From assembly GCF_046339755.1 (NCBI RefSeq), contig NZ_JBKDTZ010000201.1, positions 1,878 through 65,877 of the forward strand: a stretch of DNA of 64,000 nt, in the 5' to 3' direction. The stretch comes from Acidovorax sp. (GTDB lineage: Bacteria; Pseudomonadota; Gammaproteobacteria; Burkholderiales; Burkholderiaceae_C). The notes beneath the pieces were generated by a model, which saw only the letters and a list, made by a program, of their open reading frames with translations, was not told the origin of the DNA and ran no database searches. The stretch's first letter is position 1. The number at the start of each line of letters is the position of its first letter. Positions 27,229-30,134 of this stretch are shown here, in pieces. Position numbers and translations under genes: made by a program.

Positions 27229-29721
27229 ATGAACCTTTTCAAGCTGGCCTGGCCTGGCGCTGCCGATGACCAGGAGGATATGTCCGAGCAGCAGGTCATC
27301 ACGTCGGCCCACGCCTGGCGCGGCGCCGGTGGAGGGCGGGGGGCTGCTTCAGGCATGCGGCTTGATACCGACGCTGGACGGCGCGAACTGGCGCTGGAAC
27401 AGGAGGTGCAGCGGCTTGTAGAGATCAACCCTGCCAGCCGTGAGAGGCTGCGCGCGCTGGCGCAGTTCAACCTGTCCCAGCCGGTCATCGAGCAGAAGCC
27501 TGTGGACCGGGAGGCGCAGTACATGGCGCTGGGCTATGCGACTGCCGATGCCACTGGCAACGCGCGGTTCGACGCCAATCTGGAACAGCGCCTGAATGCG
27601 CGGACGCAAAAGGCGCGTCCTGACGCCGTGATAGGCGAGCGCATCGTGCAGCGCTACAACCCCAATTCTGAGCGCGAGCGCGTGGCCGCCGAAGAAAAGG
27701 AAATGCGTGCCTTGCGCGCCGATGCCCGCCAGCGCGCCGCAGCGCAGGAGATGCCGTCCGTGGTGCGAGGGCTGGCGCAGGGTGCGGGTGGGCTCTATGC
27801 AACCGCCATGGGCGCAGCAGGCCTGGCGGGTGAATTGACCGGTAGCGAGGATCTGCGCGATTGGGGTCTGGAGGGGTACCGGGAGACCATGCGCGGCGTC
27901 AACAACATCGGTCTTGCCCCGGGCTTCACCGGCATCCGCAACACGGGCGATGCAGTGGAATAGGCGCTGGAGAACAGCGGCTATGCAGGTTTTCAGGCGG
28001 CGACCACCATCCTGTCGGCCGGCATGGGCGGCCTGATCGCCAACACCGTGGGCAAGAAGGCGCTGGGAGAGGCGGTCGGCATTGCCTTGAACAGCACCGT
28101 TCAGACCTTTGGTTCTGTCTTTGGTGAGGCGGTTGAAGAGGCGCGCAGGACTGGCAAATCCCTCGATCTCTCCACGATGCTGGCCGGTGCCACGGTCTCC
28201 ACCGCCATCGACACGCTTGCGGATCGGATAGGCCTGAACGCCCGGAGCACCCAGGCATTCAAAGGCAACGCGCTGGAACGCCTGGGCAAGTCCGTGGGCA
28301 TCCAGATGGCCGTGCAGGGAGGGACCGAGGCTGTGCAGCGTGTGCCTGAAGAGTTGGGCGCTGGCCGAGATCCGCTTCGTAAGGGAACTGGCGCCCAGTA
28401 TGTGGATGACTTCGCAGCCGGCGCCCTGTTCGGTGCCCATGCCGGCACGGTGGGCGGCTTGCGCGGTGGCGAGCCAACTGGAGCGTCGGCCCAGCCTGGA
28501 GCACACAGGGCCGATGTGCCAATGGTTGGGGAGCAGCACACCACGCCAACCCCACCAGTGCATGCCGAACAGGCTTCTGCATTGCCTGAGGACTACTTGC
28601 CCATGCCTTCCGACCTGCTGCCTGATCGCGCCCTGGGCGGGGTCGAGCGCGCGAACCCGCCAGCGGCGCAAGGGGGCTCTGAGCTTGCGATGGTAAGCGA
28701 GCCTGCCGCGCACATGGCACGGGCAACAATGGATCCTCAGGGGGGTGCAGCGCAAGCCGAGCCGGCTCAGGAAGTGGCCCAACCTATGGCCGCCGCTGTC
28801 CTGCGGATGGACACGCAGCCCACCGGCACGCTGGCCGTGACGGGATATCCGGCGCTCATCCGCGACGCCTTGTTGCAGGCGGGTGTTGCTGCTTAGGATA
28901 TCTTCCCAAGATCCCAAGGCGCTTTGGTGGCGCCCCGAAGTGCCAAGCGCGCCTGGGGGATATTGTCGCCCCTTGCGCAGGCTCTGGACGCAGGTTCAGG
29001 GCGCCAGGGGCCTGTCTTGCCGGTCGCATCCCCTGCCTTGACTCCTTCGCATCCGGGAATGGTTTTGTTGGATGGAGGCTCGCTGGCGGTAACGGGCGGT
29101 GATCCTGCCGAAATTGTGGATCAACTCCTTCGGGCTGGGATCGGAGAGACTGAGCGGTTGCAAATTCCAGGAGGGGTGCTGGTGCCGCCAGGCAGTGTCC
29201 AGAAAGTGCTGCAGATTTTCTCGGCGACAGGTGCTGAAAAGCTTGTGCCAGCGCGCTCTGGTTTTCACAATGGTGCACAGGCATTCGATGGGCCGCCTGC
29301 CTGGCCCATGCATGCATTGCCGCCAGGGCCGGTTTTTGCGAATCGATTTCCCGACGACGCAAGCGAGCTTCGCGATGTGCCGGCCTTGACGACAGACCAA
29401 GCGTTGAGAATGCCTGCAAATGTTCTCTATGTGGTCAAGGAAAATGGTGCGTTGATCATGGCGCGCAAACCGCACGATCCGGGAGGTTTTGGCCATGTTG
29501 ATCTGGCACGAGGAGAAAAGGTCATTGCCGCCGGTGAAGCCAAGGTGCTGTGGGGAACTGTCAAGTACATCGATAACGCATCAGGCCACTACCTCCCCAA
29601 CGGAGACGCAGCGGCGGCGGCCGCAGTCAAGGCCTTTCGCAACCATGGCTTCCAAGTTTCTGATGAAAGATACATCAACAAAATCTTTGACTTCAAGAGC
29701 AGGAAATGGGTGAAGAAATGA
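27229..29721 (+). CDS. large phage internal/ejection-like protein with toxin-like C-terminus; interrupted by two in-frame TAG codons (27961, 28894)
   Basis: ORFs 27034..27963, 28024..28896 and 28924..29721 are in one frame with only single TAG codons between them. ATG at 27229 after GGAG. Coiled-coil N-terminal part, Gly/Ala-rich zipper-like middle. A ~40-aa module (..LAVTG.P..I.D.LL.AG...G.LV.P.S) is repeated across the second TAG. The last ~130 aa are lower-GC. Confidence 0.6.
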
Positions 29722-30134
29722 ATGATCTCATCGTCGAAAATTTCAATACGTTGTGTCAAAAATTCCGCTCTGTGAACTACGCTGAAACCGGCGAAGATGA
29801 GATGGAGCCTTTGTACGAGGAACTGCTAGGTCTTTTGCAGCGTAACGCTCAGCACCGCCAGCAGTTGGCGCAGCTCCTTATGGACGACATCCGTCGGCAG
29901 CGGTATGGCGGGCGGCAGGGCGAGATATGCTTTTCGGATACCGCCATAGGGTATTGCATGCGAGAACTTCGTTGGCCGGAAATCCTGGCGTTTGCTCAGC
30001 AGGAGAATTTCGAGTTCCACTCCAGAAAGATGTCAACCGCCTTGCATAGCATTTTGGAGGCTTACGACGATGAATGGCCAGATGCAGTATTTTTCCGTCG
30101 CTTCGGTGGCGGCAGGGATGCTTTGGGCGGTTGA
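29718..30134 (+). CDS. immunity-like small acidic protein
   Basis: ATGA overlap with the stop of the toxin-like ORF. Lowest-GC stretch of the region. 138 aa, acidic (MNDLIVENFNTLCQKF...EDEMEPLYEELLG...). No family recognised. Confidence 0.55.
   Translation: MNDLIVENFNTLCQKFRSVNYAETGEDEMEPLYEELLGLLQRNAQHRQQLAQLLMDDIRRQRYGGRQGEICFSDTAIGYCMRELRWPEILAFAQQENFEFHSRKMSTALHSILEAYDDEWPDAVFFRRFGGGRDALGG

Follow-up and report, generated by a model that had tools for sequence, protein, structure and literature searches.

Polymorphic toxin systems are recognized by a conserved carrier that bears unrelated alternative C-termini, by the recurrence of the same domain at the very C-terminus of unrelated trafficking carriers, and by an immunity gene located directly downstream that co-varies with the toxin domain (Zhang et al., 2012). 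In temperate phages, polymorphic toxins of the MuF type have been described (Zhang et al., 2012, PMC3482391; Jamet et al., 2017, PMC5576092; Apk2 and Bxa, PMC11699363), and packaging in the phage head followed by ejection with the DNA has been proposed for these toxins and for polyvalent proteins (PMC3482391, PMC5576092, PMC5512222). In this work we have analyzed a stretch of 64,000 nucleotides (nt) from Acidovorax sp. (assembly GCF_046339755.1, contig NZ_JBKDTZ010000201.1), hereafter the window, whose own coordinates are used throughout. A previous reading made from the sequence alone had pointed in it to a phage ejection-like protein ending in a toxin-like domain and followed by a tightly coupled small gene. 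The three traits listed above are all found here, and the best explanation, which we consider quite probable, is that positions 27229-30570 constitute a decaying polymorphic toxin–immunity locus that has retained its immunity gene, inside a prophage remnant of the Acidovorax chromosome. This locus would function in the manner of a CdiA-CT/CdiI or Rhs-CT/RhsI module, and its position recalls that of a MuF toxin. Systems of this kind are known; the carrier, two unannotated families and a predicted fold are new. Its features are, with lengths in amino acids (aa):

27067..27085, forward strand: terminator-like hairpin 3' of the gene for a 170-aa membrane protein; likely 5' limit of the toxin transcription unit
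27229..27963, forward strand: carrier segment 1 (MNLFKLAWPG...), which stops at the in-frame TAG 27961-27963
27964..28896, forward strand: carrier segment 2, with a hydrophobic core rich in glycine (ILSAGMGGLIANTVGKKALGEAVGIALNS...) and a spacer rich in proline, which stops at the in-frame TAG 28894-28896
~28786..28974, forward strand: linker repeat 1 (...TGTLAVTGYPALIRDALLQAGVAA, then the stop, then DIFPRSQGALVAPRS...), broken by TAG 28894
~29056..29229, forward strand: linker repeat 2 (GMVLLDGGSLAVTGGDPAEIVDQLLRAGIGETERLQIPGGVLVPPGS...)
29335..29721, forward strand: C-terminal toxin domain of 128 aa (29335-29718) plus stop codon, in frame 1; an unannotated polymorphic-toxin C-terminal family
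29706..30134, forward strand: cognate immunity gene, coding for 142 aa if ATG 29706 is the start and for 138 aa if it is ATG 29718, with its open reading frame (ORF) intact
30223..30531, forward strand: gene of 102 aa (phrog_21050), interrupted at 30367-30369 by a third in-frame TAG
30550..30570, forward strand: terminator-like hairpin with 8 pairs and then T7; the toxin/immunity unit probably ends here

Translated in frame 1, positions 27229-29721 resemble a single protein, yet they contain the two in-frame TAG codons at 27961-27963 and 28894-28896. The single large ORF of the sequence-only reading is therefore interrupted in the window, and so is the proposed fusion of the domain to a full-length carrier, since both nonsense codons lie in between; the C-terminal domain is held in a 265-aa ORF (ORF3, 28924-29721, with a TTG start) that is severed from the carrier. 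The change in character and the drop in G+C content (GC) reported for the last ~130 aa were borne out, with a GC of 0.53 in the 128-aa domain and 0.52 in the small gene versus 0.66-0.73 in the flanks; at third codon positions (GC3) the values were 0.59-0.61 for the low-GC cassette and 0.72-0.94 for the flanks. The domain and the immunity gene make up a low-GC cassette that has been horizontally acquired. The overlap between both genes was also as described, the toxin stop codon TGA (29719-29721) sharing the ATGA motif with the ATG at 29718-29720, which is in the same frame as the ATG at 29706. The repeated linker modules correspond to two units of ~55 aa each, N-terminal to the toxin domain and 43% identical over 49 aa, and the whole toxin/immunity unit is bracketed by the terminator-like hairpins at 27067-27085 and 30550-30570.

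The assignment to polymorphic toxins is made because the carrier bears varied C-termini, the domain rides on many carriers, and the small gene travels with it. Regarding the domain, a HMMER scan of 1.84 billion cluster representatives returned 347 representatives with a related sequence at E<=1e-3, and the domain ended 15 aa or less from the protein C-terminus in 139 of 152 relatives. A search for it on other carriers had been advised, and they were indeed found: RHS-repeat proteins, RHS proteins with TcdB_midN or SpvB plus PT-HINT, and Fil_haemagg_2 proteins with PT-VENN or DUF637. These CdiA-type and Rhs carriers come from Pseudomonas, Streptomyces, Tahibacter and Xanthomonas, and the toxin–immunity pair spans Actinobacteria, Proteobacteria and other groups. 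The likeness to CdiA-CT/CdiI and Rhs-CT/RhsI modules thus includes identical domain and immunity families on their carriers, with the immunity gene immediately downstream, as well as a cassette replacement that appears to have left an orphan immunity gene at the window locus. In contrast to these modules, the window carrier is phage-derived and lacks RHS and hemagglutinin repeats as well as PT-VENN and PT-HINT, and the toxin domain is preceded by the two ~55-aa linker repeats instead of a pre-toxin domain.

An alignment of 47 family sequences showed six invariant residues (N3, H54, N81, S83, H85 and Y86, in domain numbering) and two that were nearly so (E68 in 44/47 and D56 in 41/47). The copy in the window keeps N3, H54, E68, N81, S83, H85 and Y86. 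The domain is basic, with an isoelectric point (pI) of 9.4 (family median 9.0), and its ratio of nonsynonymous to synonymous substitution rates (dN/dS) between the window and the related locus L007 was 0.19, indicative of purifying selection. No consistent match to Pfam was obtained for the window domain and 46 other family members, nor any match in NCBIfam or in sequence and profile searches of the PDB, and a search against PHROGs gave nothing above noise for either the domain or the small protein. Among 120 homologs listed, the precomputed Pfam field was empty ('-') in all but one, and the only source names were "filamentous hemagglutinin" or "hypothetical protein". An AlphaFold2 model based on the 47 sequences reached a predicted local distance difference test score (pLDDT) of 96.7 and a predicted template modeling score (pTM) of 0.90; it was used in place of a run on 4 sequences (pLDDT 59.9), which was discarded. 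Two short helices at the N-terminus of the predicted fold are followed by a β-meander of four strands, a long helix and, at the C-terminus, a β-hairpin. The Foldseek comparison that had been recommended gave no match to this model in the PDB (best E=0.4, template modeling score (TM) <=0.32); rows for gelsolin, PXR and blasticidin deaminase were dismissed as noise (E>=0.4, TM<=0.32). Against BFVD, three unnamed viral proteins were the only matches (E 1.5e-4 to 6e-3, TMq 0.46-0.62).

Two enzymatic identities were set aside: that of a deaminase, the domain having none of what we take to be the Zn ligands of those enzymes, and that of an ADP-ribosyltransferase of the H-Y-E or R-S-E class, as the order of what are presumably its motifs is wrong. 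Our guess, to which we attach low confidence, is that the toxin is a cytoplasmic enzyme most likely acting on nucleic acid, because H54, E68 and the H85-Y86 pair are conserved, the toxin is basic and the immunity protein is very acidic. The invariant His, Glu and His-Tyr residues are candidates for mutagenesis. Nine 'PT' toxins have been reported by Nachmias et al. (bioRxiv 10.1101/2021.10.19.465003), together with the crystal structures of PT1 and PT7. Since Foldseek gave no match in the PDB, PT1 and PT7 are unlikely to correspond to the domain, assuming that both structures were present in the library searched. The suggestion that the toxin could be undescribed was upheld within the libraries searched: the family is undescribed relative to Pfam, NCBIfam and PDB, by sequence and by fold, PT2-6, PT8 and PT9 of Nachmias et al. 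not having been compared. We are thus dealing with a widespread toxin–immunity pair that has no counterpart in Pfam, NCBIfam or PDB and whose confidently predicted fold matches no solved structure.

The association between the domain and the small gene was evaluated in loci gathered from GTDB genomes by means of a degenerate DNA pattern (AAGE-N33-DNxSGHY). This yielded 80 loci, all but one of which (79/80) encode the toxin domain. A homolog of the small protein was present in 67 of these 79 loci, in every case (67/67) on the same strand; relative to the toxin stop, its start lies between -16 and +299 nt. At least 4 of the 12 domain loci without it end at the edge of the fetched stretch. Since the downstream gene played no part in the pattern, the linkage is an independent result, and the small gene, far from being unrelated or absent in homologous loci, travels with the domain. 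Loci with other C-terminal types have other downstream genes. With a pI of 4.7 and a net charge of about -10, the small protein is acidic; it carries no signal peptide, and the dN/dS of its gene between the window and L007 was 0.13, again indicating purifying selection. No consistent Pfam match, Imm families included, was found for 24 members of the immunity family, and a profile search of the PDB gave none below E=0.1.

As for the carrier, three types of C-terminus were found on its homologs:

Type 1, the domain of the window: P0007 and P0012
Type 2, followed by a different downstream gene of 166 aa: P0003, P0008 and P0009
Type 3, with weak matches to WHH/Colicin-DNase: L011, P0013 and P0014

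The C-terminal part is therefore variable and not conserved among homologs, which, along with the presence of domain and small gene on CdiA-type and Rhs proteins, supports the polymorphic toxin–immunity architecture that had been proposed. Homology to the window breaks at 28957 and 30643 in the case of type 2 and at 28433 and 30198 in that of type 3, positions that represent recombination breakpoints. A trace of a former exchange may be found in the 102-aa gene downstream of the immunity gene. Its homologs in L008 and L011 match window positions 30223-30531, and codon 30367 is Trp, with the gene intact, only in these two loci, which have the WHH-type C-terminal domain; the TAG at this codon is common to the window, L005 and the locus of Acidovorax sp. 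CF316 (L081). Judging from these comparisons, the 102-aa gene is probably the orphan immunity gene of a WHH cassette that was displaced by the one now in the window.

Other rearrangements were observed in related loci. In L010, positions 3700-4378, after the type-2 toxin and immunity genes, contain short pieces matching window 30646-30728 and 28807-28974 and then an 89-aa ORF, an arrangement that resembles a series of displaced ('orphan') toxin/immunity modules, as in contact-dependent growth inhibition and Rhs loci. In L008 (9677-10000), L002 (340-600), L004 (1-180) and L063, a copy of the linker repeat is found in place of the N-terminal carrier segment; this copy ends in the type-2 pre-toxin junction (...SPNENGH), directly onto ATTILSAGMGG. 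The swap of a linker copy for the N-terminal segment therefore indicates recombination between tandem or incoming toxin genes.

The description of the carrier as phage ejection-like finds weak backing in a relative, P0005 (from L010), which has an N-terminal SLT domain (PF01464, E=7e-7). The PHROG matches of this region include a transglycosylase, a lytic tail protein and an 'internal virion protein with endolysin domain' (phrog_342). With respect to L010, ~450 nt encoding the SLT domain are missing from the window near 27279-27291, and the domain is absent both from the window carrier and from its intact ortholog in CF316. The carrier thus resembles ejection proteins of the T7 gp16 type in the match of the P0005 SLT domain to PF01464 and phrog_342, in the glycine-rich hydrophobic segments and in the podovirus-type neighbours (an SU10-type adaptor), and differs from them in the missing SLT domain of the window and CF316 proteins and in the lack of similarity beyond the SLT region. 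We know of no toxin–immunity cassette in T7-type ejection proteins.

The locus is like those of MuF toxins in that the N-terminal part is conserved, the C-terminal toxin varies and the immunity gene comes directly after it; its place beside head genes of a (pro)phage recalls theirs, and such genes often lie in prophage remnants. The mirroring of MuF-type systems claimed in the sequence-only reading is therefore right as far as the polymorphic architecture is concerned, but it does not extend to the carrier: the MuF domain (PF04233) was not detected in the window segments at E<=1, in P0005 and P0009 at E<=0.1, or in the intact 830-aa ortholog of CF316 at E<=0.01, and in one of the relatives scanned the N-terminus bears an SLT domain instead. 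Nor do the families of the C-terminal domain and of the immunity protein belong to those annotated. Regarding the setting, the window gene is directly upstream of scaffold and capsid genes, as shown by the following features, but the element lacks portal and terminase:

30779..36118, forward strand: head/neck module of the prophage remnant
30779-31855, forward strand: scaffold
31953-32945, forward strand: major capsid protein, Phage_capsid_4 (PF25209)
33015-33356, forward strand: gene of 113 aa
33375-34073, forward strand: SU10-type adaptor
34070-36118, forward strand: protein of 682 aa

Two small tail-like genes are located 3' of the gene for the 682-aa protein, and the element measures ~9-10 kb in total. 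It is embedded among ordinary chromosomal genes; one flank has MarR, a methyltransferase, a glyoxalase and a SHOCT protein, whereas the other has an acyltransferase, AMP-ligase and KAS cluster. The remnant block occupies the identical chromosomal site in Acidovorax sp. LjRoot66 and several metagenome contigs. The head module was found again in 21 IMG/VR contigs. In the two long ones examined, a giant protein with LPD38, of at least 2176 aa in one contig and at least 2740 aa in the other, is encoded directly upstream of the scaffold, and MuF_C is present in one of the two giants; they belong to the large polyvalent proteins as understood by Iyer et al. (2017, PMC5512222). The carrier resembles the polyvalent proteins of those authors in genomic position and in the concept of a virion-packaged protein with effector domains. 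It differs in having no LPD domain and no similarity by BLASTP, and in bearing one toxin domain rather than many. To our knowledge, a dedicated immunity gene and swappable C-termini, both present in the window system, are not features of polyvalent proteins.

The interruptions of the toxin gene can be traced by comparison with relatives. Codon 27961 is TGG (Trp) in five relatives and TAG in the window only, whereas codon 28894 is GAG (Glu) in eight relatives and TAG also in an independent metagenome contig of the Joint Genome Institute (JGI), L114, which is 98.2% identical to the window. The CF316 locus is colinear with window positions 26324-32674 (90.9% identity) and contains an uninterrupted ORF of 830 aa (MNLFKL... 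to ...WVKK). Since relatives have sense codons at these positions and the CF316 ORF is uninterrupted, the in-frame stops are, by this comparison, mutations (TGG to TAG and GAG to TAG) and not a feature of the genetic code. Stop-codon reassignment and a suppressor tRNA were considered and rejected: TAG is an ordinary stop here (8 of 35 confident ORFs end in it), no suppressor tRNA was found in the window, whose sole tRNA is tRNA-Arg(TCT), and the bias is expected, as 58% of nonsense substitutions in the toxin ORF should produce TAG, so that three of three has a p of ~0.2. The two nonsense codons cut the carrier, and therefore no full-length toxin would be made from the window locus. The lesions differ among strains:

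L005 and L114: frameshift and H54D (invariant residue)
L007: deletion, another W-to-TAG change, and G84C
L063: V34F
L010: Y-to-TAG
L011: TAG and frameshift

All the type-1 loci examined, on the other hand, have an intact copy of the downstream 142-aa gene. Closely related strains in which the toxin has been inactivated by differing mutations while immunity persists offer a clean case of toxin loss with immunity kept.

In the intact form, as represented by the 830-aa protein of CF316, an N-terminal carrier with glycine-rich hydrophobic segments would be followed by the two linker repeats and by the basic toxin domain at residues 703-830. The acidic, cytoplasmic immunity protein made from the overlapping gene would neutralize the toxin, possibly by blocking its active site. 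Because the carrier lies in the slot of virion-packaged polyvalent proteins and one relative bears an SLT domain, we infer that the ancestral protein was probably carried inside the head and ejected, along with the DNA, into a target cell. A delivering particle cannot come from the window locus alone, since the element has neither terminase nor portal; delivery with, or from, a phage particle, as initially envisaged, would consequently apply to the ancestor and not to the window. The gene that has been retained intact probably provides orphan immunity against kin still making the toxin. The carrier would then represent a second phage-linked carrier of polymorphic toxins besides MuF, in the slot of virion-packaged polyvalent proteins, and it bears on whether and why phages hold antibacterial toxins within their heads.

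Several points weigh against this explanation. The status of the carrier as a putative ejection protein derives from gene position and one SLT-bearing relative; no homologs of the carrier were found in INPHARED phages (tblastn) or in IMG/VR, and it has no BLASTP similarity to the syntenic polyvalent giants (E>=0.3). Terminase, portal and a tail-fibre module are all missing from the element, which leaves phage delivery putative. Toxicity and protection are both read from sequence comparison, and the guess of a nucleic acid target finds no structural support in the predicted model, given the values of the PDB comparison (best E=0.4, TM<=0.32). Finally, TAG 27961 was seen in the window alone. A sequencing error at this codon is conceivable because it is unique to the window and because a host gene of the same window, encoding a glyoxalase/VOC protein (24252-24650), has a 1-nt deletion (~24501) with respect to L005 that puts its last ~45 codons out of frame. 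This gene is called intact, with 130 aa, in L005 and L114; its lesion is either that of a real pseudogene or a sequencing error, which bears on the trust to be placed in single lesions of the window.

Among the alternatives, the cassette could still be active, with toxin produced through low-level read-through or suppression at both TAG codons or from the stand-alone 265-aa ORF3, and with the immunity gene protecting the producer. The window domain does keep all the invariant residues, its dN/dS of 0.19 with respect to L007 speaks of selection, and the three in-frame stops of the unit are all TAG. However, the stop sites are sense codons (W, E) in relatives and vary by strain, TAG is in ordinary use with no suppressor tRNA in the window, and the uniformity of the stops has the probability of ~0.2 given above; besides, ORF3 is devoid of the carrier needed for export, and inspection of the sequence, without a formal analysis, revealed no evident ATG start or clear ribosome-binding site for it. 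We consider this possibility improbable.

The toxin domain could also be a phage 'early effector', injected to seize or disarm the host in the manner of polyvalent proteins or T4 Alt, in which case the small protein would be a chaperone or an inhibitor acting in the producer cell. This would be in line with the large polyvalent proteins found at the syntenic position in related phages, with the location of the carrier within the head module and with the weak structural matches to unnamed viral proteins in BFVD (E 1.5e-4 to 6e-3). The domain and its downstream gene, however, are also found on CdiA-type (PT-VENN) and Rhs (PT-HINT) proteins in Pseudomonas, Streptomyces, Xanthomonas and others, a placement that is the signature of antibacterial polymorphic toxins and thus argues against an early effector, as does the WHH-nuclease-like alternative C-terminal domain on the same carrier; we give this alternative little credit.

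It is similarly doubtful, although worth stating, that the ~9-10 kb block as a whole (170-aa membrane protein, carrier, immunity protein, scaffold, capsid, adaptor, 682-aa protein and small tail-like proteins) is no dead remnant but a domesticated phage-derived device, maintained by Acidovorax for packaging and delivering swappable toxins, that is, a capsid-based 'bacteriocin', whose toxin would be an enzyme with a fold unseen in solved structures. The weakest alternative, that the stops are sequencing or assembly artefacts in an intact gene, could draw on the frameshifted glyoxalase gene, intact in two close relatives, and on TAG 27961 being unique to the window, but it is very unlikely given that both lesions are base substitutions and not indels, that TAG 28894 appears again in the independent contig L114, and that closely related contigs have other independent lesions of the same gene.

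Besides the decaying toxin–immunity locus itself, some observations were made on its surroundings. The genes of the remnant (window 30779-36902, L008 12508-18643, L005 7463-13613) are under purifying selection that matches that of flanking host genes, the dN/dS values of the capsid, 113-aa gene, adaptor and 682-aa protein being 0.04, 0.08, 0.10 and 0.14, respectively, and that of the host methyltransferase 0.10-0.14. Domestication, or else gene conversion from active phages, may lie behind such strong selection on a remnant without terminase or portal at a fixed site. The 170-aa predicted membrane protein (26518-27030), which has no family match and its own terminator, is encoded directly upstream of the carrier in all the Acidovorax loci, and its gene keeps its place even where genes further upstream differ (L007). 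In L005, a contig 97.7% identical to the window, a pair of IS4-family transposase genes (14529-15857) lies ~0.9 kb downstream of the last tail-like gene. The tRNA-Arg(TCT) gene of the window (54919-54995, minus strand) is ~18 kb away from the remnant and does not adjoin it. Lastly, three closely spaced RCC1-repeat (β-propeller) paralogs of ~650 aa are encoded at 709-2640, 2641-4638 and 9243-11192, all on the minus strand, and a 719-aa Sel1-repeat protein is encoded between them, at 4576-6735.

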